40,559 nt of DNA from Nitrospinota bacterium (GTDB lineage: Bacteria > Nitrospinota > Nitrospinia > Nitrospinales > VA-1): contig JAYZAN010000078.1 of assembly GCA_036339675.1 (NCBI GenBank), positions 1-40,559 of the forward strand, read 5' to 3'. Within the stretch, counting starts at the first letter, position 1. Each line of letters opens with the position of its first letter. The notes under the pieces are model-generated. The model worked only from the letters and a program-made list of their open reading frames with translations. It did no database searches and had not been told where the DNA came from. A program made the position numbers and the translations under genes. Shown here piece after piece: positions 6,141 through 40,412 of the stretch.

Positions 6141-6428
6141 GGAAACCTCTAATAAGTCTAAATTTTTGTGGAGAACCTCCGCTTGTAAAGGGTGACATTA
6201 TTAATTCGCGCTCAACGTTCATCGTCAACTCTAGAATCTATTAGCCAACTACCCCCGCGGTACGCCCACTATGTGGGAGGAAAAAGGATGAACCTTATTT
6301 TGCGCCCAACGATCATCGTAAGCTCAAAAGCTATTAGCCATCTGGCACCGCGCCGAGCGGACGGCCATGAACTTGCCCTTGAATTTAAAGGGCAAGTTCA
6401 TGGCCGATCACAATTTTTAGAGGTGCCC
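6141..6428. mobile_element. MITE-like element carrying two tandem repeat-family units and a long hairpin
   Basis: Imperfect terminal inverted repeats GGAAACCTCTAA / TTAGAGGTGCCC; TTAT direct repeat on both flanks (6137-6140, 6429-6432); units at 6206 and 6300; homologous to 40270-40412 and to dnaE insertions. Confidence 0.7.
6362..6406. repeat. Perfect 19-bp inverted repeat with 7-nt loop
   Basis: CGGCCATGAACTTGCCCTT (6362-6380) / AAGGGCAAGTTCATGGCCG (6388-6406). Confidence 0.95.
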
Positions 6429-6515
6429 TTATTTCTTCCCGCCAGCTTGGTGGAAATTTTTCTCTGAAATGACTCGGTCTCGGAAACAGTAATATATTTA
6501 TCCGCCATGAGATAT

Positions 6516-7394
6516 TTATCCATGTACCTGTAAAATTTTTTTCGCCGATATGATCCGGTCGCGGCCGCTGTAATCGGGAAACACCTCAACACCGGCAACC
6601 CCCCCATGAGCCCGGAAAATTTCAGAAACTCTTTGAGCCTGGTCTTCGCCGATCTCCATAAGAAGACTTCCCCCGTCTTTTAGAACTGTGAATGAACGGG
6701 GAATGATTCTTTTATAAAAATCAAGACCTCCCGGCCCGCCATCCAATGCCTGCCGGGGTTCATAAGCCCTCACATCGGTCATCAGGTGGTCCAGACGTCG
6801 GGTCTCTATGTAGGGAGGATTTGACAGAATAAAATCGTAAACTGGCCCGCAATCCTCATCCATTAAATCCGCGTGCACAAAACGAATGCGGTCCGACACC
6901 TGATGAGTTCGTGCATTTTCCCCGGCAATATCCAAGGCGTTTTTTGAGTTGTCCACAGCGGTTATCATCGCCCGGGACAATTCTTTAGCCACAGCGATGG
7001 CGATATTTCCGGTGCCGGTTCCAATATCCAGAATTTGAAACGGCCGATCCTTCTCCGATGCGGTTATCAGATCCAGAAACCGCTCAAGGAGAACCTCCGT
7101 TTCGGGCCTGGGCACCAGGACATCCGGGGTTACTTTAAAATCGAGGGACCAGAATTCCTTTTTCTTCAGGATATAAGAAACCGGCTCCCAGCGTGCCCGC
7201 CGTTCGACAAAATTTTTACAGATCTGATGTTCTTGTTCGGTCAATTCCCGGCGCGGAGCGATGAGTAAGTGTTCCCGGCTGGATTTCAGAACCTCCGCTA
7301 AAAGTACTTCGGAGTCCAGGCGGGGATTATCGACCCCGGCGCGGTCCAGACAGGACGAAGACCAATCGAGGAATCTCTGTGCCGTCCAGTTCAT
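6516..7394 (-). CDS. prmC: Release factor glutamine methyltransferase PrmC/HemK
   Basis: VLVPRPETE, LDIGTGTG, SNPPY, ALDGG..GLDFY; downstream of prfA; ORF extends to 7448 but ATG at 7394 fits family length. Confidence 0.95.
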   Translation of the reverse strand: MNWTAQRFLDWSSSCLDRAGVDNPRLDSEVLLAEVLKSSREHLLIAPRRELTEQEHQICKNFVERRARWEPVSYILKKKEFWSLDFKVTPDVLVPRPETEVLLERFLDLITASEKDRPFQILDIGTGTGNIAIAVAKELSRAMITAVDNSKNALDIAGENARTHQVSDRIRFVHADLMDEDCGPVYDFILSNPPYIETRRLDHLMTDVRAYEPRQALDGGPGGLDFYKRIIPRSFTVLKDGGSLLMEIGEDQAQRVSEIFRAHGGVAGVEVFPDYSGRDRIISAKKILQVHG

Positions 7395-7460
7395 CGTCCC
7401 ATCCCCTTTCACCCTTTGATTGAGAATTCCGTTCTGAGTGCGGTTCATTAATTTTAATGA

Positions 7461-8567
7461 TCATACCGAAAGTGTTCCGGCCTTTTCATTCTTTCCTTCG
7501 TCATCCCTTTGTTTGAGAGATTCCGTCTGAAAATGAATCGCTAGTTTTTCGACGATTTCATCCAGATCCCCCTCCATGACCTGGGAGAGTTTGTGAAGGG
7601 TCAACCCGATTCGATGATCGGTGATCCTCTCCTGCGGGAAATTATAGGTCCTGATCCGTTCGCTCCGGTCACCGGTTCCAACCTGCTGTTTCCGGTTACG
7701 GGCCAACTCGTCTTTTTGTTTTCTCTGCTGCTCATCGTACAACCTGGCACGAAGGACCTTCATGGCTTTATCCTTATTCTTGTGCTGGGATTTCTCGTCC
7801 TGACAGGTCACGACCAGCCCGGAAGGGACATGAGTGATTCTCACCGCCGAATCCGTGGTGTTGACGCTTTGTCCCCCAGGACCAGATGAACGAAATACAT
7901 CGATCTTTAATTCCGCGAGATTGATCTTGATATCTATATCTTCCGCTTCGGGCAGAATGGCCACGGTTACCGCCGAGGTGTGGATTCGCCCCTGGCTTTC
8001 GGTCTCAGGCACCCGCTGCACGCGGTGGGTACCGCTCTCAAACTTTAATTTACTGAATACTCCCTTCCCTTGAATACTCAAAATGACCTCTTTGAAACCA
8101 CCCTTTCCGGTCGGGTTCTGGCTCAAAATCTCCGTCTTCCATTTTTTGGTCTCTGCATAACGATTGTACATCCTGAACAAATCCGCAGAAAACAGGGAAG
8201 CCTCTTCTCCCCCTGTACCCGCGCGGATTTCCATGATGGCGTTTTTTTCATCCCGGGGATCCTTGGGAAGAAGCAGTACCTTCAACCGGTTTTCGGCCGC
8301 GGATTTTTCTTCCTCCAATCTTTGCAGGTCTTCCTGGGCCAGTTCGAGAAGTTCAGGGTCGTCTTCCTCACCCAGAAGTTTATTACTGTCCTCCAATTGC
8401 CGGTTGATCTTTTTCAATTGCCGGTATTCGGTCATGATTGGAGCGAGATCCGACTGCTCCTTGGCGTACTTCTGGTATTCGAATTGCCTAGAGATGATAT
8501 CCGGGTCACTGAGCAATTCGTTCAGGTCATTGTACCTTTTTTCAACTTCCTCAAGCCGGTCAAACAT
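7461..8567 (-). CDS. prfA: Peptide chain release factor 1
   Basis: GGQ motif ([10 protein letters not shown]), PET anticodon-like tripeptide, EIRAGTGG; start ATG 8567 (ORF to 8588). Confidence 0.97.
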
Positions 8568-8672
8568 GATTCTCTTTCCGAAACTCAAAAAATTGTGTGG
8601 CAGTTAACTTAAGGGATGTCGGGATTCGACGGAAATGGGTCTAGGGACAACGAGGGGGGTCGCGCCCGGAGG

Positions 8673-8773
8673 CCAGCGTGACGGTGGACCCAACAGGGTG
8701 AAGTTCTGATTGCGCTCAGTAATTATTGAGTATAAACCAGAGTTTCAGCCAGTTCCCCGCCCGCGTGGCGGGC
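8673..8773 (+). repeat. Diverged intergenic copy of the repeat family
   Basis: CCAGCGTGACGGTGGACCCAACA matches 11627-11649 at 20/23; then, at the same 16-nt spacing after CCCAA, TTGCGCTCAG-N28-GCCA (8710-8751). Confidence 0.6.
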
Positions 8774-8777
8774 CAGA

Positions 8778-9017
8778 CTATTCGGGGGCTGCAGTTTCCT
8801 GGGCGGCTTCTTTTTTCTGGGCTTTTCCGTATTTGCGGTTGAATTTTTCGATCCTGCCCGCGGTGTCGATCAACTTCTGTTTCCCAGTATAAAACGGATG
8901 GCATTGAGAACATATTTCCACATGCACATCCTTGACGGTGGCCCGGGTTTTGATCTCGTACCCACACGCGCATCGGAAGGTGGTTTCAAAATATTCAGGA
9001 TGGATCTCGACTTTCAT
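8778..9017 (-). CDS. rpmE: 50S ribosomal protein L31 (zinc-binding type)
   Basis: [24 protein letters not shown]. Confidence 0.97.
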
Positions 9018-9027
9018 ACCATCTTTC

Positions 9028-10278
9028 TTATGAGTTCATCGACGAGAGGAACTCAGAGTTAGTCTTGGTTTCCTTAATTTTTTGCAGGAGAAGGTCCATA
9101 GTATCATGAACCCCCATGGGTAATAAAACTTTTCTAAGAAGCCAGATGCGCTGCAAGTCTTCCGGCGGCAGAAGAAGCTCTTCTTTCCTGGTTCCCGACC
9201 GATGGATATCGATGGCGGGGAAGGTTCTCTTATCGGCCAGTTTCCGGTCGAGGACGATTTCCAGGTTACCGGTTCCCTTGAATTCCTCGAAAATCACGTC
9301 ATCCATCCTGCTACCCGTATCGATCAGGGCCGTGGCGATGATTGTCAGGCTGCCGCCTTCCTCCAGGTTCCGGGCAGCGCCGAAGAAACGTTTGGGACGC
9401 TGAAGGGCATTGGAATCAACACCTCCGGACAGCACTTTTCCGCTAGGCGGCACGATGGCGTTGTAGGCCCGGGCCAGCCTGGTGATACTGTCGAGAAGAA
9501 TCACCACATCCCGTTTGTGTTCGATCAGGCGCTTGGCCTTTTCGATGACCATTTCCGCCACCTGGACGTGACGCTGAGCCGGTTCGTCAAAGGTGGAACT
9601 GATAACCTCCCCTTTGACAGACCTCACCATATCCGTCACCTCTTCCGGCCTTTCGTCGATCAGGAGGACAATCAAAACGACTTCCGGGAAATTGGTGCTG
9701 ATGCTGTTGGCAATGGACTGCAACAACATGGTCTTCCCCGTCCGGGGCGGGGCCACGATTAATCCGCGCTGGCCTTTTCCTATCGGGGTCATCAAATCCA
9801 TGATACGAGCGCTGTAGTCATGCCCGTTCAGCGTTTCCAGCCTTATCCGCTCCTCGGGGTACAGCGGTGTCAGGTTGTCAAAAAGGATCTTGTCCTTGGT
9901 CTTGTCCGGATTCTCAAAGTTGATCGCTTCGACTTTCAACAGCGCGAAGTACCGCTCGCTCTCTTTTGGCGGCCGGATCTGTCCCGATATGGTGTCCCCG
10001 GTGCGCATGTCGAATTTCCGGATCTGCGACGGCGATACATAGATGTCATCCGGCCCCGGCAAATAGTTATAGGTCGGAGCACGGAGAAAACCGAACCCAT
10101 CCGGCAGAATTTCCAATACGCCCTGACCGAACATCAGGCCGTCCTTTTCCGTCCGCGCTTCTAATATCTTGAAGATCAGGTCCTGCTTGCGTAATCCGCT
10201 ATGACCTTGAATTTTAAGGTCCTTGGAAATATTTGTGAGTTCGGAGATAGTTTTAGATTTGAGTTCTTCAATATTCAT
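9028..10278 (-). CDS. rho: Transcription termination factor Rho
   Basis: [35 protein letters not shown]. Confidence 0.99.
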
Positions 10279-10504
10279 GGGATGCGACTTAGTTGAGGTG
10301 AGAGTTGAATTAGATTCCTGTTTTTGGCTAGTTTTTTGAATGGTGATTTGTCTGGTTTAAGGTTTGTGAAAAGGAATGAATGAGGGTAAGGTCCGGATTT
10401 CCAAAAAATTGTTTTCTGAATATATCGGCAAAGGTGCGTAGAAAGCTGAGCTGGATTGATTGGGTTATGGGGTTTTTTTAATAGGGGCGCTGGAGGTTTC
10501 TAAC

Positions 10505-10533
10505 AATGTATCCAGTTACATATTCTTTGTCAA
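10505..10533 (-). promoter_or_regulatory. Sigma70-type promoter for rho operon
   Basis: Minus strand TTGACA-N17-TACATT about 230 nt upstream of rho. Confidence 0.7.
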
Positions 10534-10566
10534 CAACTTTTTCCCTGATGTTATGGAAACTCCCGG

Positions 10567-10598
10567 GCCCCCACGGCGAGTGGCCGGGCGTGGCCCGG
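10567..10598 (+). repeat. Fragment (right arm plus small hairpin) of the repeat family
   Basis: GCCCCCACGGCGAG identical to 12327-12340, followed by TGGCCGGGCGTGGCCCGG, similar to 11722-11739. Confidence 0.7.
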
Positions 10599-10608
10599 AA
10601 ATTTTATC

Positions 10609-10638
10609 TTGACCCGGCGCTCCATCCCGATTTAAGAT
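10609..10638 (+). promoter_or_regulatory. Candidate sigma70-type promoter for dnaE2-like gene
   Basis: TTGACC-N18-TAAGAT about 70 nt before the ATG. Confidence 0.45.
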
Positions 10639-10707
10639 ACTTGATACCCAAACCATCGAAAACAAGGCATTTTTTTTGTCCCTTATTTTCGTTTTTTATT
10701 CGCTTTT

Positions 10708-13700
10708 ATGTTTGTACACCTAAACTGCCACAGCAACTATTCGCTCCTCGCGGGCACGAACCGGGTCGACGACCTGGTCCGGGCGGCCGCGGCCCAGGGA
10801 TGCCCGGCACTGGCTCTGACAGATACCAACGGTCTCTATGGGGCCATACCGTTCTATCAGGCGGCTCTCAAGGCCCATATACGCCCGATCCTGGGAACGG
10901 AGATAATAACAAACCGGCGTGCGACACTTCTGGCAAAGAATCTGCGGGGATTCGGGGAAATCTGCCGCATCATCACCCGCCGCCATCTGCAGCCCGGTTT
11001 CTCCCTAGAAAAATGCCTGGAGCAATGCAGCCATGACGTCATCATTCTGTGCCCGGATGAAAACCTCCTGGAAAACACGATCGCTGTCCGGGGAGGCGAA
11101 GACATCTACGCGGAACTGCTCGCCGCAGGGGCGGATGGCAAAAACCCAGACTGGCGACCTCAAGCGATTGGGCGCGAGACGGGGTCCGGCCTGTTCCCCC
11201 CGGGCGTAGGCCACCACACGGGGAGAAAAGTCGTTCCAGAAAATCCCGGTTTCGCCCAACGATCATCGTTTGGAGAACAAAGCATTAGCCAATTCCCTCC
11301 GAGCGTGACCCGGCGGCGAGCAGTGGCTACCAACCGGGTGTTTTTCATTCGTCCGGAGGACTGGCAGATCCACCGTCTCCTTACGGCAATACGCACCGGC
11401 ACGACCGTAGACGCATCGTCTGCACTGCATGAATCGAAAGAGTTATGGATGAAGCCGCCTGAGGAAATGGTCCGCCTGTTCCATGACATCCCGGAAGCCA
11501 TCCGGAACACTCTCGACATCGCCGAACAGTGCAATGTCGTCCTGCCCATCGGCGAGATACGGCTCCCGAACTTTCCGCTGCATGCGAGCGGGATACCTTC
11601 CTCCCGGCTGGTCGCCGCAGGGGCGCCCAGCGTGACGCTGGGCCCAATAAGTTCAACCTTATCTCGCGCTCAACGGTCAACGCAAGATCAAAAGTTGTTG
11701 GCCATTTGGCCCCGCGCCGAGCGGCCAGGCGTGGCCCGGCTTCGCAGACTTGCCCGGGAGGGAGCCGTAAAACTTTATGGTCACCCGCCGCCTTCCGATG
11801 TATCCGAGAGACTGCGTTACGAGCTTGAGGTCATCGACAACCTTGATTTTGCCTCCTATTTTCTGATCGTCTGGGACATCGTGCGTGAGGCGAAAGCCCG
11901 GGGCATCCCCACGGTGGGGCGCGGTTCCGCCGCCAACAGCCTGGTGTGTCGGGTCTTGGGAATCACCGAGGTGGACCCGATCGAACACAACCTGTATTTC
12001 GAGCGGTTCCTCAACCCGGAACGAACGGATTACCCCGATATCGACATCGATTTTCCCTGGAACCGGAGAGACGAAATGCTGGAATACGTGTTCAACAAAT
12101 ACGGACATGAGAACGTGGCGCTGATCTCCACCCATGTCCACTTCCGGGGCCGCTCGGCGCTCCGGGAGGTGGGCAAAGCCCTAGGGGTTCCCCTCCCAGA
12201 GATCGACGCCTTCGTCAAGAGGCTACCGCATTCTTTCGACGTGGCCGGGCCACGCCCAGGGGGAACAGGCCAGACCCCGTCTCGCACCCAATCGCTTGAG
12301 GTCGCCAGTCTGGGTTTTTGCCAACCGCCCCCACGGCGAGCCCACTACGTGGGAGAAAACGGGGGAAAATGGATTTCGCGCTCAACTGTCAATGCAAGTT
12401 CAAAAGCTGTTAGCCATTTGGCCCCGCGAGCGGCCGGACTGGAAGAGGTGAGGAAACTGGTGCCGGAATGCCGGGACCTGCCGCTGGAAGACGAACCTTA
12501 CCGGTCGATCATCGCGCTGAGCAAAAGGATCGACGGATTCCCCAGGCATCTGTCGATTCACTGCGGGGGCATCGTGATCAGTCCGTTTCCCATCACCGAC
12601 CGGATACCGCTTCAGAAAACACCCAAGGGATTCGTAGTGACGCAGTACGACATGTACCCCGTCGAGGACATGGGACTGCTGAAGATCGATCTTCTCGCGC
12701 AGAAAGGGCTAGCCGTGCTCGCGGACACGGTGCAAAACGTCAAAACCCTTTATGGAACAAAAATCGATTTCAGCCAGATCGATCCCACGCGCGATTCCAG
12801 GACCCGCCGGTTGATCCGGCAGGGAAAAACCATCGGTTGTTTCTACATCGAGTCTCCGGGCATGAGAAACCTTCTGCAGAAACTGGAGGTCGACAGTTTC
12901 GACATGCTGACGGCGGCCAGTTCCATCATACGTCCGGGCGTGGCGGACAGCGGCATGATGAAGGCGTTCATCGACCGCCACAACGGCAGGGAGAAAGTCC
13001 ACTATCTGCACCCGAAAATGGAAGAGATCCTGAAAGAAACTTTCGGCGTGATGATCTACCAGGAAGACGTGATCAAGGTCGCCCACGCGATCGCTGGAAT
13101 GAGCCTGGGAGAAGCGGACAGCCTCAGAAAATGCATGAGCAAAAAGAGAGACTGGGAGGACATCAACAACCACCGGGAACGTTTTTTTTCGGGAGCACGC
13201 GCGAACGGTATCGCGAAAAAAATCATCGAAGAAATCTGGAGGCAGATCGAAAGCTTTGCGGGATACGCGTTCTGCAAAGCCCACAGCGCTTCTTTCGCGC
13301 TGGTCTCCTACCAATGCGCCTACCTGAAGGCGCACTACCCCACCGAGTTCATGGCGGCGGTCCTGTCCAACCGGGGCGGGTTCTACGACGCCTGCGCCTA
13401 CACCGAGGAAGCGCGGCGTATGGGAATCAAGATACTAGCTCCACACGTCAATCACAGTGCCGAAGAATTCATGGCATGCGGAAAACGCGCCATGTATGTC
13501 GGGCTCGGACAAGTAAAAGGGCTGTCGCACCACACCATAAGCACTATTCTGAAACACCGCAAGGACGGTCCTTATGTATCGGTGGCGGATTTCCTGTCGC
13601 GTGTGGAGGCAAGCATTCCGGAAACCGAGGCCCTGATCCGCTGCGGCGCACTCGACGGGGCGAGAACTTCACGCCCGGAACTGTTGTGGCAGCTGAAGCT

Positions 13701-14217
13701 TTTAACTCGTGCGGAAAAAAACGGGCCCATGGCAAGTCTCCCGTTTACTTCTGTCCGGAGGACCAGGATTCTTAAACTCCCCGAGTACACCCTACGCGAA
13801 AAAGTGCTGGCGGAGCTGGAGCACCTGGATCTCGCGGTCTCAGCCCACCTGTTGTTGCTCTACGATGTGAACCAAGCGGGGTTGACACAGGCGCGGGACT
13901 TGGTCCAGTTTCCCGGATGCATCGTAACGCTGGCCGGATGGCTGGTGACCGCCAAAAGCACCTGGACCGTGCAGCACCAGTTGATGAAGTTTCTGATGCT
14001 GGAAGACGCCACGGCATCTTTCGAGGTCACATTGTTCCCGAAGGTTTACAGGCGGTTCGGGCCGCTCCTCTATGACCGCGGACCTTACATCGTCAAGGGC
14101 CGGGTGGAGTCGGAAGGCCGGTGCCATACCATCACGGCGCTCTGGCTGGGCCGCTGCTCACCCACTCGCCGTGGAGGCGGTTGGCAAAAACTCTGGATCG
14201 CGAACTCTAGTGATTGA
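10708..14217 (+). CDS. dnaE2: DNA polymerase III alpha subunit family, DnaE2-like (error-prone type), with repeat-derived in-frame insertions
   Basis: PHP-like N-terminus (HLNCHSNYS), GRGSAANSLV, FERFL, PDIDIDF, RHLSIHCGG, KIDLL, YAFCKAH, OB fold (FLMLED); ends just after the OB fold with no long tau-binding CTD. Confidence 0.85.
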   Translation: MFVHLNCHSNYSLLAGTNRVDDLVRAAAAQGCPALALTDTNGLYGAIPFYQAALKAHIRPILGTEIITNRRATLLAKNLRGFGEICRIITRRHLQPGFSLEKCLEQCSHDVIILCPDENLLENTIAVRGGEDIYAELLAAGADGKNPDWRPQAIGRETGSGLFPPGVGHHTGRKVVPENPGFAQRSSFGEQSISQFPPSVTRRRAVATNRVFFIRPEDWQIHRLLTAIRTGTTVDASSALHESKELWMKPPEEMVRLFHDIPEAIRNTLDIAEQCNVVLPIGEIRLPNFPLHASGIPSSRLVAAGAPSVTLGPISSTLSRAQRSTQDQKLLAIWPRAERPGVARLRRLAREGAVKLYGHPPPSDVSERLRYELEVIDNLDFASYFLIVWDIVREAKARGIPTVGRGSAANSLVCRVLGITEVDPIEHNLYFERFLNPERTDYPDIDIDFPWNRRDEMLEYVFNKYGHENVALISTHVHFRGRSALREVGKALGVPLPEIDAFVKRLPHSFDVAGPRPGGTGQTPSRTQSLEVASLGFCQPPPRRAHYVGENGGKWISRSTVNASSKAVSHLAPRAAGLEEVRKLVPECRDLPLEDEPYRSIIALSKRIDGFPRHLSIHCGGIVISPFPITDRIPLQKTPKGFVVTQYDMYPVEDMGLLKIDLLAQKGLAVLADTVQNVKTLYGTKIDFSQIDPTRDSRTRRLIRQGKTIGCFYIESPGMRNLLQKLEVDSFDMLTAASSIIRPGVADSGMMKAFIDRHNGREKVHYLHPKMEEILKETFGVMIYQEDVIKVAHAIAGMSLGEADSLRKCMSKKRDWEDINNHRERFFSGARANGIAKKIIEEIWRQIESFAGYAFCKAHSASFALVSYQCAYLKAHYPTEFMAAVLSNRGGFYDACAYTEEARRMGIKILAPHVNHSAEEFMACGKRAMYVGLGQVKGLSHHTISTILKHRKDGPYVSVADFLSRVEASIPETEALIRCGALDGARTSRPELLWQLKLLTRAEKNGPMASLPFTSVRRTRILKLPEYTLREKVLAELEHLDLAVSAHLLLLYDVNQAGLTQARDLVQFPGCIVTLAGWLVTAKSTWTVQHQLMKFLMLEDATASFEVTLFPKVYRRFGPLLYDRGPYIVKGRVESEGRCHTITALWLGRCSPTRRGGGWQKLWIANSSD
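11119..11320. repeat. dnaE insertion 1: two back-to-back repeat units (minus 11119-11177, plus 11250-11308)
   Basis: 11119-11207 is the reverse complement of 12252-12340 at 83/89; CGCCCAACGATCATCGT identical to 6303-6319; boundaries approximate. Confidence 0.85.
11581..11740 (+). repeat. dnaE insertion 2: hairpin plus one repeat unit
   Basis: 11655-11724 matches 6291-6360 at 58/70 ungapped; GCCCAGCGT-G-ACGCTGGGC palindrome; boundaries approximate. Confidence 0.85.
12241..12438 (+). repeat. dnaE insertion 3: two tandem repeat units (12282, 12376)
   Basis: 12320-12428 matches 6244-6352 at 81/109 ungapped; same 94-bp period as the 6206/6300 pair. Confidence 0.9.
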
Positions 14218-14259
14218 GCGCGAGACGGCGTCTGGTCTGTTTCCTCCGGGCGTGGCCCG
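14165..14259 (-). repeat. Repeat copy overlapping the dnaE stop codon
   Basis: 79/95 ungapped identity to the reverse complement of 12246-12340; same orientation as 11119-11207. Confidence 0.9.
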
Positions 14260-14370
14260 ACTGGACTTCTGAGCCAGACATTAATACTTTTTTATTTATA
14301 AAACACCGGTGTACACTGGGATGAATCTCTCTTAACACAGCACATCCATTGGCATCCGGGAACACTTCAA

Positions 14371-15351
14371 ATGAGTGAGCAAAAAGATTTCACCATCGAG
14401 TCCAAAGATTTTGAGCCAGCCTATATGAAGCTGTTCAGGACCGGGGAGCTGTACCGCCGGTCAAGGGAGGTGTTGCGCCTGTTGGAGAACTGCAAGGTAT
14501 GCCCCCGCGACTGCGAGGTGGACCGGCTGGCGGATGAAACGGCGGTCTGCAAAACTGGACGGCACGCGATCGTGTCGAGCGCCTTCCCGCATTTCGGCGA
14601 GGAAGACTGCTTACGGGGCTGGAACGGGAGCGGAACCATTTTCTTCTCCATGTGCAACCTGAAGTGCGTTTTCTGCCAGAACTACGACATCAGCCAGGAT
14701 GGCGAAGGCCAGGAAGCAGGGCCGGAACACTTGGCGTTCATGATGATGAATCTTCAGAACCGGGGGTGCCACAACATCAATTTCGTGACTCCCGAGCACG
14801 TCGTGCCGCAAATCCTGGAAGCCCTGCCGCTGGCCGTGCAACTGGGGCTGAGGCTGCCCCTGGTTTACAATACCGGAGCCTATGATTCCATGGACAGTAT
14901 GCGGGTGATGGACGGAATCGTAGATATCTATATGCCCGACTTCAAATACTGGAGTCCGGAACTTTCAAAAAAATACCTGAAGGCGAAGGATTACCCGGAA
15001 GCCGCACAACGGGTCATCCGGGAAATGCACCGGCAGGTGGGCGATCTGGTTGTGGATGAAAACGGTCTGGCCAAACGTGGGGTTCTGATCCGCCATTTGG
15101 TCATGCCGGACAGCGATTCGGATGCCAGGCAGATCATGCATTTTTTAAATCATGAAGTTTCTCCTCATACGTACGTCAACATCATGTCTCAATATCGCCC
15201 TGCGGGAAAGGTGAACGCGAACAAATACCCCGAACTCAACCGGAAAATCTTTTCAGAGGAAGTCGGCCGGGTTTATAAAATCGCCAGAGAGGAGGGACTG
15301 TACCGGTTCGATAAAAGGCGTCCCGTATCCGGCGCATTTGCAATTGTCTGA
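14371..15351 (+). CDS. PflX-like radical SAM protein
   Basis: C..CPR.C, HFGEE.CL.G..GSGTIFF, CNLKCVFC (CxxxCxxC), NINFVTP, DIYMPDFKY, RHLVMP. Confidence 0.9.
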   Translation: MSEQKDFTIESKDFEPAYMKLFRTGELYRRSREVLRLLENCKVCPRDCEVDRLADETAVCKTGRHAIVSSAFPHFGEEDCLRGWNGSGTIFFSMCNLKCVFCQNYDISQDGEGQEAGPEHLAFMMMNLQNRGCHNINFVTPEHVVPQILEALPLAVQLGLRLPLVYNTGAYDSMDSMRVMDGIVDIYMPDFKYWSPELSKKYLKAKDYPEAAQRVIREMHRQVGDLVVDENGLAKRGVLIRHLVMPDSDSDARQIMHFLNHEVSPHTYVNIMSQYRPAGKVNANKYPELNRKIFSEEVGRVYKIAREEGLYRFDKRRPVSGAFAIV

Positions 15352-15548
15352 CATGTGTAAATGGAGTTGGCATAGCATCTGGGAAATTCGGTCCTTCAGT
15401 TGACTTTGAAAAAATATATAGGCACAATGAAACCCCTGAATGACCCATGCAGGTTGGCTAAAACTGGGCCAAGCCCCTGGATATATTACTATCGACCCTT
15501 GAAAAAATCATTCAGAATGCCCAATCCGGTTGTCTGCAACCCTTTCAA

Positions 15549-15827
15549 ATGGATATTGGCAAGGTGGAGCAAGAATGGGGAGTCAGAGGATTCAGTTGCG
15601 CTCTATGGACCGATCCTCCGGGGCAGGTCTGGGGAAACTTCGTCCATGAGGTGGACGAACTGCTGATGGTCGTCCAGGGCAAGCTCGAAATGGAAATGGA
15701 GGGAAGCGTACTGCATCCCGGTATCGGGGAGGAGATATTCATCTCTGCGAATGTCCTTCACACCGTACGGAATGTGGGTGGCACCACGGCCCGCTGGCTC
15801 TACGGGTATAAAATACATCCCTCTTGA
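15549..15827 (+). CDS. Cupin domain protein
   Basis: W.DPPGQ.W..FVH..DEL, H.V.N.G...ARWLYGY. Confidence 0.85.
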   Translation: MDIGKVEQEWGVRGFSCALWTDPPGQVWGNFVHEVDELLMVVQGKLEMEMEGSVLHPGIGEEIFISANVLHTVRNVGGTTARWLYGYKIHPS

Positions 15828-15868
15828 TTATTGATGATCGGAACCATCACTACCTTGAGAAAAACCCC

Positions 15869-16288
15869 ATGAGTAAAAACGGAAGAGACGATACCAGCCA
15901 GTGTGAAAAATGCCTGCCGGCCTACTGTTGTAATTACTTCTCCTTCGAGATCGACGAGCCGGAAGACCGTAAGGATTACGAAAGCCTGTTGTGGAAAATC
16001 GCGCACGACAAGGTCTCGATATATATATACCGCAAGTGCTGGTATATCATGATCCACACACGGTGCAATTTCCTGAGTCCGCAGAACAAGTGCATGATCT
16101 ACGAACACCGTCCCTATCTTTGCCGGGAACACAGCACGCAAAACTGTGAATACACCGACGGCGATTTTGGGTTTACCGAGCATTTCAAGAGTTATGACGA
16201 ACTTCTGGAATACATAAAGGAAAACACCAATTACCGCTTCAATCAGCCACCGACGGGGGTGCGGCCCAATTGTGTTTCCGCGGATTGA
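15869..16288 (+). CDS. YkgJ family cysteine cluster protein (CxxCxxxCC)
   Basis: CEKCLPAYCC, C.FL....KC.IYE.RP..CR; ATG 15869 (ORF from 15824). Confidence 0.85.
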   Translation: MSKNGRDDTSQCEKCLPAYCCNYFSFEIDEPEDRKDYESLLWKIAHDKVSIYIYRKCWYIMIHTRCNFLSPQNKCMIYEHRPYLCREHSTQNCEYTDGDFGFTEHFKSYDELLEYIKENTNYRFNQPPTGVRPNCVSAD

Positions 16289-16311
16289 TTTACACGTAAG
16301 GCTATTTACCG

Positions 16312-16356
16312 GCGGAGATTCTCCGCAAAAATGCGGAATTATTAGAGATCTCCTTA
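16312..16356 (-). repeat. Solo MITE-like end with hairpin between convergent genes (possible terminator)
   Basis: Reverse complement matches 6138-6182 at 36/45 ungapped; GCGGAGA-T-TCTCCGC hairpin. Confidence 0.7.
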
Positions 16357-16414
16357 ATTATTATTTCGGATAGCTCGGTGACAAGAGTGGGGAAATTCGG
16401 GGAATAGTAGGAGG

Positions 16415-29081: not shown

Positions 29082-29086
29082 TCCTA

Positions 29087-30015: not shown

Positions 30016-30638
30016 TTTCCTGGTTTAATAATCCGAACCGCCCCCCCATTGGCTCCTGGAACGGCTCCCCGCAATAAAAGAATATTCTTTTCCTTGTCCA
30101 CCCGGACCACCCGTAGGTTTTTGATATGGATGGTTTCCTGACCCATATGCCCAGGCATTTCCTTGCCTTTGAATACGCGGCCCGGATAGGTGTGCATCCC
30201 GATCGACCCGCCGCCACGAAACGATTCATGCGTACCCCGCGAAGCCGGGGCTCCCGCAAACCCGAACCGCTTGACCACGCCCGCAAACCCCCGCCCCTTT
30301 GAAACGCCTATGACATTGACTGAATCCCCTTCCGCAAACATCTCCACGGTAAGCGGATTGCCCAACTCCTCGTCTTTGATTTCCTGGTCGCGGACTTCCG
30401 TTAGGATTCTTGCGGGTTCGATCTTGTGTTTACTGTAGAAACCCTGAAGAGGCCTGTTGGTGTGCTTGGCCTTTCGCTGTCCATAAGCGACCAAAACGGA
30501 ATTGTATCCGTCTTTTTCCTGAGTACGCCTGAGAACGGGTATACACCGGCCCACCTGGATCACGGTCACCGGGACACAATCCCCTTCCTTGGAAAAGACC
30601 TGAGTCATTCCAACTTTTTTTCCCAATAATGCCTGCAT
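30012..30638 (-). CDS. rplC: 50S ribosomal protein L3
   Basis: LGKKVGMTQ, SKGRGFAG, PGRVFKG..MPG.MG; ATG 30638 preferred. Confidence 0.98.
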   Translation of the reverse strand: MQALLGKKVGMTQVFSKEGDCVPVTVIQVGRCIPVLRRTQEKDGYNSVLVAYGQRKAKHTNRPLQGFYSKHKIEPARILTEVRDQEIKDEELGNPLTVEMFAEGDSVNVIGVSKGRGFAGVVKRFGFAGAPASRGTHESFRGGGSIGMHTYPGRVFKGKEMPGHMGQETIHIKNLRVVRVDKEKNILLLRGAVPGANGGAVRIIKPGK

Positions 30639-30751
30639 CACCAATTTCCACCGGGCACCCCCGGTCAAAGTCTTAAAGAGTTTGCTTTTAGCGTCGACGA
30701 CCCCTGATTAAAAATTCGATCCGTGTTTTCTTAAACGCCCGGTCCCTGCGA

Positions 30752-31060
30752 TCAAAGTTTGATTTCAATATCGACGCCCCCCGACAAGTCCAGCTTCATC
30801 AATGCGTCCACCGTTTGCGGGGTCGGCTCGTGGATCTCAAGGATCCGTTTATGGGTTCTAATCTCAAACTGCTCACGGGATTTTTTATCGACGTGAGGAG
30901 AACGGAGAACCGTCCATTTGTTTTTCGCTGTCGGTAGGGGAATCGGGCCAACCACCCTTGCCCCCGTGCGTTTGGTCGTTTCCACAATTTCGCCCACCGA
31001 CCAGTCCAGAAGTTTGTGGTCGTAGGCTTTCAGCTTAATCTTGATTTTCTGTTCGGTCAT
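30752..31060 (-). CDS. rpsJ: 30S ribosomal protein S10
   Basis: [26 protein letters not shown]. Confidence 0.99.
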
Positions 31061-32250
31061 TATTCTGTGATCTCACTGACGACACCCGCCCCGACGGTGC
31101 GCCCGCCTTCACGAATCGCGAAGCGGAGCTCCTTGGCCATGGCCACCGGAGTGATCAACGAAATTTCCATCGTCACATTATCTCCCGGCATGACCATTTA
31201 CACACCCGAGGGAAGGGTGCATATCCCCGTCACGTCCGTCGTTCTGAAATAAAACTGGGGACGATATCCGTTGAAGAAAGGAGTATGCCGGCCTCCCTCC
31301 TCTTTACTCAATACATAGACCTCGGCCTTGAATTTGGTGTGGGGAGTGATGCTTTTCGGCTTGGCCAGAACCTGACCGCGCTCAATTTCATCCCGCTTGG
31401 TGCCCCGGAGCAGGCAGCCGACGTTGTCCCCGGCTTGACCGTTGTCCAGCAATTTGCGGAACATCTCCACACCTGTCACCGTCGTCTTGGCGGTGGGACG
31501 GAAACCGACGATCTCCACCTCTTCACCCACTTTGATGACCCCTGTTTCCACACGGCCGGTGGCGACCGTGCCGCGCCCGGAAATACTGAAGATATCTTCG
31601 ATGGGCATCAGAAATGGCTTGTCGACGGGACGATCGGGAACGGGAAAATACTCGTCCAGGTTCTGCATCAATTCCCAGATGCATTTGGTTTTTTCCTCGT
31701 CTTCCGGATTTTCCAGAGCCTGAAGAGCGCTTCCACGAATGATAGGGATATCGTCGCCGGGGAATTCGTATTTACTGAGCAGCTCACGGACCTCCAGTTC
31801 CACGAGATCCAGAAGCTCAGGGTCATCGACCATGTCCACTTTATTCATAAAGACAATGATCTTGGGAACACCGACCTGGCGTGCCAGGAGGATGTGCTCA
31901 CGGGTTTGAGGCATCGGCCCGTCCGAAGCACTCAACACCACAACGGCCCCGTCCATCTGCGCTGCACCGGTGATCATATTCTTTACATAGTCCGCGTGAC
32001 CCGGACAATCCACATGCGCATAATGACGATTATCTGTCTTGTATTCCACATGCGCGATGGCGATGGTGATTCCGCGCTCTTTTTCCTCGGGCGCCTTGTC
32101 GATCTCTTCGAAAGCAATACTATCGGCCAACCCCTTTTTTGCAAGAACTTCCGTGATGGCTGCGGTTAGCGTGGTTTTTCCGTGGTCCACATGACCGATG
32201 GTCCCAACGTTCATGTGCGGTTTATCACGAACGAATTTTTCTTTTGCCAT
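31060..32250 (-). pseudogene. tuf: Elongation factor Tu with in-frame TAA at codon 351 (real nonsense mutation or sequence error)
   Basis: [18 protein letters not shown]; TAA at 31198-31200 is followed in the same frame by MVMPGDNV...[13 protein letters not shown]...TE-stop, giving 396 codons. Confidence 0.9.
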
Positions 32251-32309
32251 TCTGGTTCACTCCAAAAATAATTTTCAATATGTTGGTTAATGTATACGTT
32301 TATGTTTAA

Positions 32310-34421
<2,112 letters not shown>

Positions 34422-34530
34422 AATGCCTCTGCACTTAAAATTTTCATCGGGAATGGATATACGCCTTACCCGCTTCGGCCTTTTGATGAATATCTTCTTT
34501 ATTTTTATTCCTTGGCCCCGTTAGGCTTGA

Positions 34531-35001
34531 TCACCACCGATAGTGAGCGAACGCCTTATTGGCTTCGGCCATTCGATGAACGTCTTCTTTCTTTTTGATC
34601 GCTCCCCCGGCATTGTTGAACGCATCCAGAATTTCTCCCGTCAGCTTTTCCACCATGGACCGTCCTGAACGTTCCTTGGCAAACTGGATCATCCATCGGA
34701 TACTCAGAGCGATTCGCCGGCCCTCTTTAACCTCGACCGGAACCTGGTACGTGGCTCCGCCCACTCTCCTGGACCGGACCTCCAAAAGCGGAGCCGTGTT
34801 TTCCACAGCCTTGCGGAATACCTTGATCGGATCCTCTTTGGCCTTGACGGCCACGGCTTCCAGGGCGTCGTAAACGATCCCTTCGGCCACGCTTTTCTTT
34901 CCGCACCTCAGGATATTGTTGATGAACCGGCCCACCAGCACATCGTTGTATTTTGGATCCGGCGTAATTTCTCTTTTCTGCGCTTCTCGTCGTCTAGCCA
35001 T
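34531..35001 (-). CDS. rpsG: 30S ribosomal protein S7
   Basis: [24 protein letters not shown]. Confidence 0.99.
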
Positions 35002-35016
35002 TGTTTTTTAATTTTA

Positions 35017-35397
35017 TCACCGGTTTTTTTTAGGCCTTTTGGTCCCATACTTGGACCGGCTCTGCATACGATTTTCCACTCCAAGTGTATCCAGACTTCC
35101 GCGAACCACATGGTAGCGCACGCCGGGAAGATCCTTGACCCGGCCCCCACGAATCATCACGATGGAATGCTCCTGCAAGTTATGCCCCACTCCGGGAATA
35201 TAGGTCGTGACCTCCATCCCGTTGGTCAACCTGACACGCGCGACCTTCCTAAGGGCCGAATTAGGTTTCTTAGGCGTTGAGGTATATACCCGAACACACA
35301 CTCCGCGTTTCTGCGGACAGGATTTTAAGGCCTGGGATTTTGTTTTTTTGACAGGCCGCTCCCGCCCTCTTCTAACTAATTGATTTATTGTTGGCAA
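35017..35397 (-). CDS. rpsL: 30S ribosomal protein S12
   Basis: TTG start then PTINQLVR; [20 protein letters not shown]; G-rich RBS upstream. Confidence 0.98.
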
Positions 35398-35521
35398 AAC
35401 TAAACCCCCCGTCCTATGGCAAGTCATATTTCCGACTACCATAAGACCCAATTAAGGCTTTAAGACTAAAAACGGGATTAAAGACTTAAAATTTAGATAG
35501 TTATAGCGGAAAAAGGTTGTA

Positions 35522-35549
35522 ATTCTACCATTCTCCACGTGGGAGTCAA
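35522..35549 (-). promoter_or_regulatory. Sigma70-type promoter for str operon
   Basis: Minus strand TTGACT-N16-TAGAAT with extended -10 TG. Confidence 0.65.
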
Positions 35550-35577
35550 GATAAAAATACTTCCCTGATTTTTGCTC

Positions 35578-38500
35578 CTAATTTTCTATTGCCACCGGAA
35601 CTTCTTCCTCAGTTTTCTTGTCCTCATCCTCATATTCTGGTTCTTCTATGCGAATGCCGGTGTAGGCCCTGCAGCCGGTTCCGGCCGGAATTAATTTGCC
35701 CATAATGACATTCTCTTTCAACCCGATCAAGTCGTCCCTTTTCCCGCTGACGCTCACTTCGGTCAACACCCGCGTGGTTTCCTGGAAGGAGGCTGCGGAG
35801 ATGAAGCTCTCCGTGCTTAGTGAAGACTTAGTGATTCCCAGAAGAACGGGAATTCCCTTGGCGGGTTTCTTCTTGTTTTTGATCGCTTCCTGATTATGCT
35901 CGTTGAACACTTTTTTGGTGGCTTGCTCTCCCATCAAAAACTCGGTGTCTCCCGGGTCCTCAATGATCAGGTGCCGGAGCATCTGACGCACGATCACTTC
36001 AATATGCTTGTCATGAATGGCCACGCCCTGAAGCCGGTACACTTCCTGGACTTCATTAACGAGGTAATTTTGTAGTTCGTTTTCTCCAAGAACTCGGAGA
36101 ATATCGTGGGGGTTGGAAGCCCCGTCCATCAAAGGTTCGCCGGCGATCACATCGTCCCCTTCATGGACATTGATGTGTTTTCCGCGGGGGATGAGGTATT
36201 CACATTCCTCTCCCGATTCGCTTTCCACGATCACTGTTCTCATTCCCTTGACGAAACCGCCGAACTTGATTTTGCCGGAAATTTCGGTGATGGCGGCCTG
36301 CTCGTGGGGTTTGCGAGCTTCGAACAATTCCGCCACCCTGGGAAGACCTCCGGTAATGTCCTTGGTCTTGGCCGTCTCGCGGGGAATTTTTACGATCAGG
36401 TCACCCGCATTCATGCGGTCGCCTTCATTGACCGCGATATGGGCACCGGCGGGGAGAATATAGCGACGCAGGGTTTCCCCGTTATTGTCCTTGATCGAAA
36501 TGCGCGGTTGTTTCTTTTCGTCACGGTGACTAATGATGACCTTGGTGGACAGGCCGGTGATCTCATCGAAGTCCTCTTTCATGGTCACACCTTCAACAAT
36601 ATCCCCGAACGCAATAGTGCCGGCGACCTCGGTCAAAATGGAGTTGGTATACGGATCCCACTCGATCAGCGTCTGGTTCTTCTGGATTTCCTGCCCGTCG
36701 TTGACTTTGAGTTTCGCCGCGTACACGACCGAATACTTTTCTTTCTCGCGGCCGTTTTCGTCCTGAATCAGAAGAAAACCGTTCCGGTTCATCACGATAA
36801 CTTCACCGCGCTGGTTCTTGAGGGTCCTGAGGCCGGAATATTTTGCGATGCCTCCCTTTTTACTCTGCAGGGTTGTTTGTTCCACCACCCGGCTTGCAGT
36901 TCCCCCAATATGGAAGGTACGCATAGTCAACTGGGTTCCGGGTTCCCCAATGGATTGTGCCGCGATGACTCCCACCGGCTCCCCGATCTCCACCCAGTCC
37001 ATGGTGGTCATATTGCGACCATAACATTTGATGCACAACCCCTGCTTGGATTCGCAGGTGAGGCAGGAACGGATCACAACGGTTTCAATGCCCGCATTCT
37101 CGATCACTTCAATCGCTTTTTCATCGATTATGTCATTGGCCTTCAACAGCACCTCATCGGTGAAAGGATCCACAACGTCTTCCAGGGCCGTTCGCCCGAG
37201 GATTCGCTCGGAAAGTGGCTGGATGATTTCTCCCGCCTCGACCAGGGAGCAGGTACTGACGCCTTTCAGTGTTCCACAATCCTCCTCCTGGATGATGACA
37301 TCCTGGGCCACATCCACCAGGCGGCGGGTCAGATAACCGGAGTTCGCGGTCTTGAGTGCGGTATCGGCCAATCCCTTGCGCGCGCCGTGCGTGGAGATGA
37401 AATACTGGATCACCGAAAGCCCTTCCCGAAAATTGGCGGTGATGGGTGTTTCGATGATTTCGCCGGAAGGCTTGGCCATCAGACCCCGCATCCCCGCAAG
37501 CTGACGCAACTGCTGGGCGCTTCCCCTTGCCCCAGAGTCAGCCATGATGAATATTGAATTGAAATCATTTCTTTCTTGGCCTTTTACTACGCGCTCATCT
37601 TCATCTTCCAGTTGCCGGAACATCTCTTCGGACACCTTTTCTGTCACATGGGCCCAGATATCGATCACCTTGTTGTACCTCTCGCCGTTGGTGATGAGCC
37701 CGTCGCGGTACTGTTTGTACACCCGGAGAACCTCATCGCCCGTTTTTTCGACCAGGGAGTTTTTGGCATTGGGAATTTTCATTTGATCGATGGAGATTGT
37801 CAAACCCGCTTCGGTGGCATATTTAAAACCCAGAGCTTTGACGTCATCCAAAAGGACGACCGTTCTCTCCTGGCCCGCGATCAGGAATGATTTGGAGATC
37901 AGATCCGACAGGGCCTTTTTGTCCATCAGCCGGTTGACCAGCGAGAAAGGCAATTCCGGCGGCAGGACTGACCCGAGCAGAACGCGCCCGGTGGTCGTTT
38001 GTTGCAGCTTGCCATCAATTCGGACCATGACGCGTGCCTGCAAATCCAACTCCTCGGCATCGAAGGCGGAGATCGTTTCTTTGGCACCCGACAGAACCCT
38101 GCCCTCCCCTTTCACTCCGCCGTGGATCTTGGTCATGTAGTAACAACCCAAGACGATATCCTGCGAGGGAACGGCGATAGGTTTGCCGTTCGAGGGAGAG
38201 AGCACATTATTGGAAGCCAGCATCAACAACTTGGCCTCAACACGTGCCTCCATGGAAAGGGGCACATGCACGGCCATCTGATCCCCATCGAAATCCGCAT
38301 TGAAGGCGGTACACACCAGCGGATGCAGCTGTATGGCTTTGCCTTCTATCAGAATCGGCTCGAACGCCTGAATCCCGAGACGGTGCAGGGTCGGCGCTCG
38401 ATTCAATAATACCGGGTGCGATTTCACCACTTCTTCGAGAACCTCCCAGACCTCGGCTCGCTCCTGCTCCACCATTTTTTTAGCAGTTTTGATGGTGGCG

Positions 38501-39684
38501 GCATAACCTTTCTCTTCTAGACGATTAAAAATGAACGGCTTGAACAATTCCAGCGCCATTTTCTTGGGAAGACCGCATTGGTGGAATTTCAATTCGGGTC
38601 CGACGACAATTACGGAACGCCCGGAATAGTCCACGCGTTTTCCCAGGAGGTTCTGACGGAATCGTCCCTGCTTACCCTTAAGCATATCGCTCAATGATTT
38701 CAGAGGCCGCTTGTTGGTGCCCCTGAGGGTTCTTCCGCGGCGTCCGTTGTCAAACAGAGCCGACACCGCTTCCTGAAGCATCCGTTTCTCATTGCGGATG
38801 ATGATTTGCGGGGCCTTCAACTCCTGCAGTCTTTTGAGACGGTTGTTCCTGTTGATCACCCGGCGGTACAGATCATTGAGGTCCGAGGTGGCGAAACGTC
38901 CGCCATCCAGGGGAACCAGGGGACGCAGTTCCGGGGGAATCACCGGGATCACCTGAAGGATCATCCATTCCGGACGGTTCCCCGACTTGCGGAACGACTC
39001 GATGATCTTAAGCCGCTTGGCGAATTTTCTTTTATTCATGACCGACTTGGTGGTCACCATGCCTTCCCGGAGCTTCACTGCCACGGCGTCCAGGTCCAAA
39101 CCTTTCAACAGCTCAAAAACTCCTTCGGCCCCGATCATGGCCTTCAGGGTATCTGCGAATTCCAACTCCGCTTCACGGAATTCTTCTTCGGTCAGCAGTT
39201 GACCAGGTTTGAAATCAGAATCCCCCGGATCGATCACCACGTAGTTTTCAAAATAGATGATCCGCTCCAGGTCTTTAAGGCTGATATCGAGGATATGCCC
39301 GATCCGGCTGGGAAGCCCCTTGAAAAACCAGATGTGGGCGACCGGGCTGGCCAACTCGATATGCCCGAGCCGTTCTCGGCGAACCTTGGAAAGGATGACT
39401 TCCACGCCGCATTTTTCGCAGACAATTCCTTTATGCTTCATCCGCTTGTATTTTCCGCAATTACATTCCCAGTCCTTCACCGGACCAAATATTTTGGCGC
39501 AAAAAAGGCCGTCCCGCTCCGGTTTGAACGTCCTGTAATTGATGGTCTCCGGTTTCTTGACCTCCCCATACGACCACGAACGGATTTTTTCCGGCGATGC
39601 CAGGCGGACCCGGATCGCATCAAACAGAATAGGATTTTTAGGCTTATCAAAAAATGTCAAGCTATCCACCAGGAGTTTCTCCAA
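35578..39684 (-). CDS. rpoC: RNA polymerase beta' subunit
   Basis: NADFDGD, zinc-finger Cys, [22 protein letters not shown]; start is TTG 39684 or GTG 39669 (GGAG 9 nt upstream). Confidence 0.99.
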
Positions 39685-39731
39685 TTTGAGGGTTGAATAA
39701 CTTTGCTTATCTCTAAACTATAAATTTAGCT

Positions 39732-40262
39732 TCATGACTGTATAAGAAGCCGTTTTTTGATGATTTTTAATAGTAATTTATAAAGGTTTTCGCCTCGATG
39801 ATTGAACCTAATCTCACTTTCTTTAAGATGCAAATAACTTGGCCAATCTCATTTTAGCGATCCCCCGGAAGTTTTTGATTCCGTTGATATGGGACTTGCT
39901 GTTGGCAAATTCATCTCTGCCATGTTGAACCCGATGGTTTTCCCTCCGGCCCCACGGCCTCTTTTTCCTTTGACTCGTCGGGCTCCGAAAAAACTTTCGT
40001 CCACTTCGACTTCACCGGATAAAGGAGATTCGATCGCACATTCTTCAGCAATTCTTTCTCGGATATGGAGCAACTATCTGTTAACCGTATTACGATTTAA
40101 ACGGGTTAATGGTGTGATCTTGGTGGCCTCAATATCCAGTGAAAAACACTTTAAAATTTCCCGAAATTTCCTGGTGGAAATTCGGGAACGTTTCAAAACC
40201 GGGTAACTCTTTGTCAGGACTGGAGCTTAACCTGTTTTCGATGGCTTTAACTAGACATGGAC
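39732..40262 (-). mobile_element. Degraded IS1595-family (IS1016-like) element; transposase pseudogene
   Basis: KFREILKCFSLDIEAT...NRNTVNR*LLHIRERI...GEVEVDESFFG...GKRGRGAGGKT, then deletion or frameshift to NGIKNF and a degraded C-terminus; TAG at 40074-40076; weak terminal inverted repeats (39732-39745 / 40246-40259, 9/14). Confidence 0.85.
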
Positions 40263-40269
40263 CTTAACT

Positions 40270-40412
40270 AAATGGCAAGTTCATGCCGCTCGCCACGGAG
40301 GCAGATGGCTAATAGCTTTTAAGCTTACGATGACCGTTGGGCGCAAATCATAGACGGTGAATATTTCTTGCGGAGGTACTCCGCCTATGAGCAATTTTTA
40401 GAGATTCCCTTA
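40270..40412 (-). mobile_element. Partial MITE-like element with one repeat unit
   Basis: 40302-40347 reverse complement matches 6299-6344 at 44/46; end 40392-40415 matches 6411-6434 at 22/24; GCGGAG-GTA-CTCCGC hairpin at the same 23-nt distance from the core as in the 6.1 kb element. Confidence 0.8.

Follow-up and report, generated by a model that had tools for sequence, protein, structure and literature searches.

The window is the whole stretch of DNA analysed here, 40,559 nucleotides that form one complete contig (JAYZAN010000078.1) of the assembly GCA_036339675.1 from a Nitrospinota bacterium. The host assembly comprises 1.80 Mb in 161 contigs, with 49% G+C and a completeness of 78%. The names of homologs of its DnaE-like protein place the genome in Nitrospinaceae, and the public sequencing runs that contain the DNA of the window are marine and seawater metagenomes. 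The window carries ten copies of an oriented repeat of about 110 bases, and six of these lie inside the open frame of a second gene of the DnaE family (alpha subunit of DNA polymerase III, Pol III). On balance, the units probably represent an undescribed repeat family with small, non-autonomous, interspersed members that end in hairpins; it is specific to the order containing Nitrospina and similar in kind to repetitive extragenic palindromic (REP), enterobacterial repetitive intergenic consensus (ERIC), and Rickettsia palindromic (RPE) elements. A previous reading of the letters alone (the sequence-only reading) described the repeat as a core of two conserved arms around a variable middle of fixed length. 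The features of the locus are listed below with their scores in the covariance model R1, which was built from alignment A2 of 30 full units. The gap is the number of bases between the two arms, and the bracketed positions are those by which the sequence-only reading named the units.

6161..6256, plus strand: repeat unit 1 (6206), R1 51.9 bits as a seed member, nhmmer 38.4 bits, gap 28; unit 2 starts within its 3' hairpin
6257..6365, plus strand: repeat unit 2 (6300), R1 90.9 bits as a seed member, gap 27; full length, abuts unit 1
8666..8776, plus strand: repeat unit 3 (8710), R1 66.7 bits on the plus and 25.3 bits on the minus strand, gap 28; between a putative L31 gene and prfA
10567..10588, plus strand: isolated 3'-hairpin fragment, R1 15.7 bits, model positions 90-111 only; upstream of the start of the DnaE paralog
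10708..14217, plus strand: second DnaE-family (Pol III alpha) gene, 1169 codons; open across three internal repeat blocks and ending inside a fourth
11119..11322, plus strand: in-frame block 1 (residues 138-205), made of a minus unit at 11111-11221 and a plus unit at 11199-11316; R1 74 and 54 bits
11605..11736, plus strand: in-frame block 2 (44 residues, 132 bases), containing the unit 11620-11729, R1 82.7 bits; its ends are ambiguous by a 7-base direct repeat
12238..12441, plus strand: in-frame block 3 (about 63 residues), two tandem plus units at 12238-12332 and 12333-12441; R1 46.3 and 71.3 bits
12336..12425, plus strand: polymorphic 90-base unit, which some natural strains have and others lack; a 6-base direct repeat in the hairpin loops lies on either side of it
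14157..14267, minus strand: unit at the 3' end of the DnaE paralog, R1 83.8 bits; supplies approximately the last 20 codons and the stop codon
40281..40391, minus strand: repeat unit 10 (40346), R1 93.7 bits, gap 27; adjoins a decayed IS1595-like element

All ten units were reproduced at the sites and on the strands originally given, and the gaps have the claimed lengths of 28, 27, 28, 28, 27, 28, and 27 bases on the plus strand and 28, 28, and 27 bases on the minus strand. The strict arm pattern matches the window exactly seven times, where 0.08 matches are expected, and at most once per shuffle in 100 shuffles. An iterated nhmmer search seeded with the ten units increased from 108 to 137 and then to 139 copies in the genome (E<0.01), where it converged, and recovered 10/10 of the window units; the copies are scattered over the 161-contig assembly. 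The held spacing extends genome-wide: both arms are aligned in 103 of the 139 copies, and 90 of these have a gap of 27 (n=54) or 28 bases (n=36), the remainder being 26 (n=9), 29 (n=2), 22 (n=1), and 24 (n=1), although such counts lean on a profile that penalises insertions and deletions. Because of this tendency, an arms-only regular-expression test with a free gap was also used. It found 38 right modules, 12 of which have an exact left arm within 82 bases upstream, and the 13 distances are 27 (4), 28 (7), and 70 (2), with approximately 0.01 left arms expected per stretch.

The arms are more conserved than the middle, as first described. The column information content over the aligned copies is mostly 1.0-2.0 bits in the left arm (columns 1-10) and 0.7-1.9 bits in the right arm (columns 35-41); most columns of the middle have 0.0-0.7 bits, but columns 13-19 reach 0.6-1.5 bits. 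The middles also form discrete classes, since clustering of 138 copies yields groups of 16, 14, 10, 10, 8, 5, and 5 members and smaller ones, with many singletons.

The unit of the sequence-only reading is real, yet it is not free-standing and forms the central and 3' portion of a longer, oriented element (about 110 bases). A 5' hairpin and a linker were overlooked, and the 3' hairpin was merged into the right arm. Display of the copies with their flanks gives the order of the parts: a GC-rich 5' hairpin (3-base loop), an A-rich linker, the two arms with the middle between them, and a GC-rich 3' hairpin (5-base loop). The 5' hairpin is located 25-40 bases upstream of the left arm, the linker has about 20 bases, and the right arm of the sequence-only reading is a four-base box followed by the 3' hairpin. 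In 27 solitary copies, the two hairpins lie mostly 97-102 bases apart, measured between their outer edges. The type of 5' hairpin, the core class, and the type of 3' hairpin combine freely, giving the elements a mosaic make-up. The two ends of the element resemble imperfect inverted copies of each other, and the weak opposite-strand match of unit 3 to R1 points to dyad symmetry.

The pairing of the 3' stem is maintained via compensatory changes. The pair 50-60 is C-G in 73, T-A in 17, and T-G in 8 of 105 copies, and at the pair 51-59, 44 of 115 copies have G-C and 38 have A-T. RNAalifold recovers the 3' hairpin alone from the 30 full units, and two of its three pairs show compensatory changes. 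A conserved fold is supported for the 3' hairpin and is not shown for the middle, for which no pairing register common to the classes emerged. Some classes fold as one long hairpin, at about -45 kcal/mol for single copies, whereas the per-class consensus folds give a long hairpin in one class (-26.3) and little in the others. A MAFFT alignment of 113 extended copies with averaged pair probabilities was too gappy and yielded no consensus structure. Since a shared register is lacking, the fixed gap is better read as a limit set on how long the entire element can be, from hairpin to hairpin, than as a fold of the middle.

Hairpins with co-varying stems could also indicate small structured RNA genes or integron attC-like recombination sites. 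The attC site is an imperfect palindrome with conserved outer boxes and a variable middle, and its length varies widely. The family shares the imperfect palindrome, the conserved outer boxes, the variable middle, and presumably a function via a folded single strand, in line with the attC analogy of the sequence-only reading. In contrast to attC, its length is fixed near 110 bases and cassette arrays are absent. The units are dispersed among and within core genes (rho, prfA, prmC, and ribosomal operons), and attC is therefore a poor comparison, although no integron integrase search was made. Copies occur in both orientations relative to the neighbouring genes and within a coding frame. Moreover, that the sequence-only reading did not recognise the repeat as a described family agrees with Rfam, whose covariance models have no match at gathering score across the whole window and only two matches, both at chance level, at E up to 1 within 6100-14400. 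RNA genes or attC-like sites are accordingly a scarcely credible explanation.

The plain arm pattern is too unspecific for a survey of relatives, as its matches in 40 of them are no commoner than those of a reversed control pattern, and the covariance model R1 was adopted for this reason. With up to 31 candidates scored per genome, R1 has matches in 58 of 120 Nitrospinota genomes, including 36/69 in family f1, 17/21 in f2, 4/5 in f4, and 0/24 in six other families. Five single-contig genomes have 21-73 matches each. Full-length matches in other genera span 106-113 bases, and the element length is thus held across genera. In the host genome two copies lie within 1.5 kb of prfA, whereas 0 of 29 related genomes have a match within that distance of their prfA, which indicates that the units are insertions and not conserved sites.

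With genes defined crudely from open reading frames (ORFs), 62 of the 139 copies are in co-directional spacers, 30 in convergent and 17 in divergent ones, 11 are in ORFs, and 19 are at contig edges. On the same gene definition, the density per kb of intergenic DNA is 0.88 for convergent, 0.50 for tandem, and 0.31 for divergent spacers. Between co-directional genes, 23 copies have the same orientation as the flanking genes and 39 the opposite one. The neighbours include rho, prfA, prmC, an EPSP-synthase-family gene, a radical SAM gene, and ribosomal genes or operons. Such a distribution could also arise from host-selected, cis-acting structured sites of the REP or bacterial interspersed mosaic element (BIME) type, which would serve as binding sites of a host protein or as protectors or terminators of transcripts at the 3' ends of genes and would spread slowly and secondarily. 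This explanation partly overlaps with that of an interspersed repeat family. The enrichment at convergent gene ends and the compensatory stem changes are in its favour, as are a hairpin module of about 22 bases that is 96-100% identical in genomes of two families and the mispairs of the 3' stem, of which 26 are of the G-T and 13 of the A-C type, a weak hint that one strand folds. On the other hand, orthologous sites in the 29 relatives have no match, the same-strand bias expected of a transcript element is contradicted by the 23 and 39 copies above, units lie within a coding frame, and no binding protein or transcript ends are known. Host-selected sites are thus rather unlikely, though they deserve serious consideration.

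Among the matches listed for three complete genomes of family f2, many lie near dnaA. A hand count places 16 of the 47 listed matches of G037 within 50 kb of dnaA (1.72 Mb), and G051 and G025 also have many of their listed matches in the 100-200 kb around dnaA. The matches listed for G084 and G018 show no clustering near this gene.

The sequence-only reading missed that six of its ten units lie inside an open DnaE-family frame. The protein has the Pfam domains PHP, DNA_pol3_alpha (palm) in two stretches, finger, and HHH_6. It is the second copy in the genome, and an uninterrupted DnaE is located on contig C49. The paralog has orthologs of about 1000-1070 residues in 34 of 120 genomes, and several share a contig with prfA, roughly 3-10 kb apart by comparison of coordinates; this distribution and the proximity to prfA characterize the paralog as an inherited core gene. 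Neither imuA nor imuB was found among its scanned neighbours, and for this reason the label DnaE2 is not given with confidence. In alignment A1 with its homologs, the paralog has three internal blocks and a C-terminal tail, all of which are made of repeat. The residues of block 1 are missing from 10 of 11 homologs, and the tail is restricted to P0001 and P0002.

The translation shows that the six units, in both orientations, are all in frame and stop-free. Outside this gene, a given single frame of the unit is stop-free in 5-23% of 132 copies. By a rough estimate that treats the units as independent, which they are not, the chance that all six are open and three lengths preserve the frame is about one in a million or less. 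Units deep within long open frames number 10 of the 139 in the genome, and five of these ten are in the DnaE paralog. Judging from strain differences, the gene is under purifying selection, with 22 synonymous and 12 non-synonymous changes outside the repeats and 2 and 3, respectively, inside them, among the 39 of 80 differences listed. The acidic residues of the conserved palm motif, presumably the catalytic ones, are invariant in A1. In one RNA-library run, contigs cover 10996-11146 and 12142-12292 and so lead out of native sequence into block 1 and block 3. This hints weakly that the inserts escape splicing, as DNA may be present in such libraries. The AlphaFold2 model of the paralog from a 12-row alignment has a mean pLDDT of 44.3 and a pTM of 0.29 and is too poor to place the inserts as surface loops.

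The same gene is affected in the distant genus g20 of family f2. The orthologs of the paralog in G054 and G062 have several lineage-specific in-frame inserts, and the insert DNA, read on the opposite strand, contains the same 5' hairpin, linker, left arm, 27-base gap, and right arm. In G054, one pair of copies with 96% identity is separated by about 240 bases within the gene, and its two members use different frames. One of the insert sites, in the PHP domain, coincides with block 1 of the window. R1 finds none of these copies at E 0.03 on the 29 ortholog loci, and with filters off only L070 and L071 have weak matches (E 0.003-0.9). Since the model scores diverged copies so weakly, the membership of the g20 inserts relies on reading of the insert DNA and on BLAST rather than on R1. 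The recurrence may reflect either permissive loops in a dispensable polymerase or a true target preference.

Units are present or absent between strains within this gene. A DNA contig of run X2 joins position 12335 to 12426 and skips exactly 90 bases, with 6 shared letters at the junction and 34 letters on its shorter side; it is otherwise about 99% identical to the window. The homolog P0002, which is 92% identical, is without the 30 residues of this 90-base unit and without all of the 44-residue block 2. The two polymorphic blocks are flanked by repeats of 6 and 7 bases inside hairpin sequence. Stacking is observed at window position 12340 and in contigs C35, C12, and C150, where the 5' hairpin of the next unit starts straight after the loop of the previous unit's 3' hairpin. 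Such starts in at least four places suggest that hairpin loops are favoured landing sites for new units. In the hairpin at 12426, where the polymorphic unit ends, 3-base insertions are found in strain contigs, and the triplet differs between runs X6 and X1; the insertions or deletions in this hairpin of the gene thus keep the frame.

For the interspersed repeat family, the data show that the elements insert at new sites, mostly between genes with a preference for the 3' ends, that they stack onto each other, and that they are gained or lost unit by unit. The rest of the course is proposed. The elements may be moved or copied in trans by an enzyme that reads the terminal hairpins, and new copies would frequently insert within or next to the loop of a terminal hairpin already present. 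The fixed length would then represent what such an element needs as a whole, from hairpin to hairpin, rather than a fold of the middle. An insertion that keeps the frame open in a permissive part of a protein would persist as an extra peptide, as in the DnaE paralog.

The search for a mobilising enzyme covered Y1_Tnp, IS110, IS1595, DDE_Tnp_1, and rve, and its results, together with the age of the copies, weigh against this proposal. Y1_Tnp, the profile of the REP-associated tyrosine transposase (RAYT), has no match in the host genome, which is 78% complete, or in any of the five single-contig carriers, and the same search was positive in 6 of 14 control genomes. Among five genomes, IS110 is present in 2, IS1595 in 3, and DDE_Tnp_1 in 2, and rve has no match above cut-off. 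The five families have no match above cut-off in the complete carriers G037, G025, and G051 (for IS110 and IS1595, G037 and G025 only), and no tested family is common to all carriers examined. No target-site duplication was seen by eye around the 27 solitary copies. A blunt terminal-inverted-repeat score is 13.3, barely higher than the 12.0 of the control. The copies are old, with a median nearest-neighbour identity of 0.69, and only 6 of 138 reach an identity of at least 0.9, all of them from duplicated contig ends or a larger duplicated stretch. The assembly contains no close donor of the polymorphic 90-base unit, the best candidate having an identity of 0.71, and the difference may therefore be a deletion between 6-base repeats and not a fresh insertion; loss by recombination between direct repeats is as likely as recent gain. 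Finally, conservation of the architecture over three families of the order is just as compatible with a host function, and the age of the copies and the lack of the five transposase families in complete carriers likewise favour host-selected sites. Separately, the single-contig genome G084 (2.7 Mb) has 24 IS110-family transposase genes, many with equal scores, which point to a recent insertion sequence (IS) burst unrelated to the repeat family.

These data also bear on two explanations with a defined enzyme. In the first, the units are REPINs or REPs mobilised by a RAYT, that is, a Y1 HUH transposase of the IS200/IS605 kind. Terminal hairpins, extragenic location, and the lack of a visible target duplication are consistent with such mobilisation. 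However, the check for a RAYT or HUH transposase proposed in the sequence-only reading revealed no Y1_Tnp in the six genomes, among them carriers of 21-73 copies. Moreover, the element has about 110 bases with a long non-palindromic core instead of a pair of 20-40 base palindromes, and G037 has no replichore orientation bias (plus to minus 10 to 11 on one side of dnaA and 12 to 14 on the other, by hand count among the matches listed and with dnaA taken as the origin). RAYT mobilisation is hence very improbable. In the second explanation, the units are classical MITEs (transposable elements of miniature size with inverted repeats), internally deleted IS copies mobilised by the DDE transposase of a resident parent. 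The small size, high number, and mostly intergenic location of the elements and the matches of unit 3 on both strands are as expected of MITEs, and the ends look like imperfect inverted copies, although the blunt score above barely exceeds its control. Against this, target-site duplications were not seen, no parent IS with matching ends was found in the IS1595, DDE_Tnp_1, rve, and IS110 families searched, these families are missing from the complete carriers G037 and G025, and young bursts of near-identical copies are absent. A classical MITE is distinctly unlikely.

The interspersed repeat family thus remains the favoured explanation. It can be extended to a joint reading with no classical transposase, in which a hairpin-directed enzyme of the host or of another source lands units in hairpin loops, the DnaE paralog is a preferred and functionally relevant target, and the repeat peptides are kept as working parts of the polymerase in at least two lineages split at family level. 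This extension is speculative and, taken as a whole, improbable.

Other sequences of the window adjoin the units. A decayed IS1595-family element occupies 39725-40270 (minus frames 39849-40226) with broken transposase frames and a DDE_Tnp_IS1595 score of 24.9 bits, which is below cut-off. Copies of it, 89-96% identical over up to about 590 bases, are located on nine other contigs, and one of its ends directly abuts the 3' hairpin of unit 10. Immediately 3' of unit 2, a 45-base palindrome with perfect arms lies at 6362-6406 and has related copies on many contigs. Its arms resemble the IS1595-like terminus at 40258-40288, and it may be a solo pair of IS ends; its sole Rfam match is a chance miRNA-like one (E 0.054). 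The region 16415-39684 is a core block with L17 confirmed by Pfam and a long run of minus-strand ORFs ending in an rpoC-like frame of 1368 residues (35578-39684). R1 finds zero repeat units over these 23 kb.

REP and BIME sequences of enterobacteria and pseudomonads are extragenic GC-rich hairpins with compensatory stem changes, mosaic modules, and no target duplication. The Nitrospinales family resembles them in its GC-rich hairpins, compensatory stems, mosaic modules stacked in both orientations, enrichment at gene 3' ends, and lack of a visible target duplication, and the REP/BIME comparison of the sequence-only reading is therefore fair as a functional one. In contrast, the family has a unit of about 110 bases with a long oriented core where REP is a 20-40 base palindrome, lacks a RAYT in the six genomes searched, and has no sequence likeness. 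No paper was found that links Nitrospina to REP, MITE, or palindromic interspersed repeats.

ERIC sequences, also called IRUs (intergenic repeat units), are described in a MITE review as 127-base imperfect palindromes of Enterobacteriaceae and Vibrionaceae that are old and clade-wide, with no known transposase and occasional intragenic copies (PMC10969869). The family shares with them, as so described, the size class of about 110-130 bases, the imperfect dyad symmetry, the old and diverged copies, the clade-wide occurrence with very different copy numbers, the lack of a known transposase, and the occasional intragenic copies (PMC10969869). It differs in that sequence and host are unrelated, and in having discrete small end hairpins and a middle of fixed length that is replaced per subfamily. 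The same review describes RPEs as elements of about 150 bases in ten families, with 44 integrations in R. conorii of which nearly half are in ORFs, and shows that in-frame MITEs are already known, above all as RPEs of Rickettsia; the string "Nitrospi" has 0 occurrences in it (PMC10969869). On that description, RPEs are similarly small palindromic repeats that lie in frame in protein genes and persist as extra peptides. In contrast, the in-frame copies of Nitrospinales concentrate in one gene that was hit again in a distant genus, and host, sequence, and end structure are unrelated, so that the likeness to RPE is in behaviour only. In summary, the family behaves like REP/BIME, ERIC, and RPE, but it lacks a RAYT, which defines REPINs, and it lacks the target duplication and parent IS that define classical MITEs.

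Two features make the family more interesting: one polymerase gene was colonised in frame more than once, and complete carriers have no recognisable transposase among the five families tested. Complete genomes that have dozens of copies and lack these families are a good place to seek unrecognised ways in which repeats are mobilised or maintained. In the ocean, Nitrospinota are the chief oxidisers of nitrite. Contigs in four public runs end at the units, and because the units break short-read assemblies, they can bias the completeness and the gene calls of metagenome-assembled genomes. The DnaE paralog would be a second independent case, besides Rickettsia, of selfish repeats surviving as protein sequence, and the concentration of units in one polymerase gene would offer a direct test of how far the Pol III alpha fold tolerates insertions.

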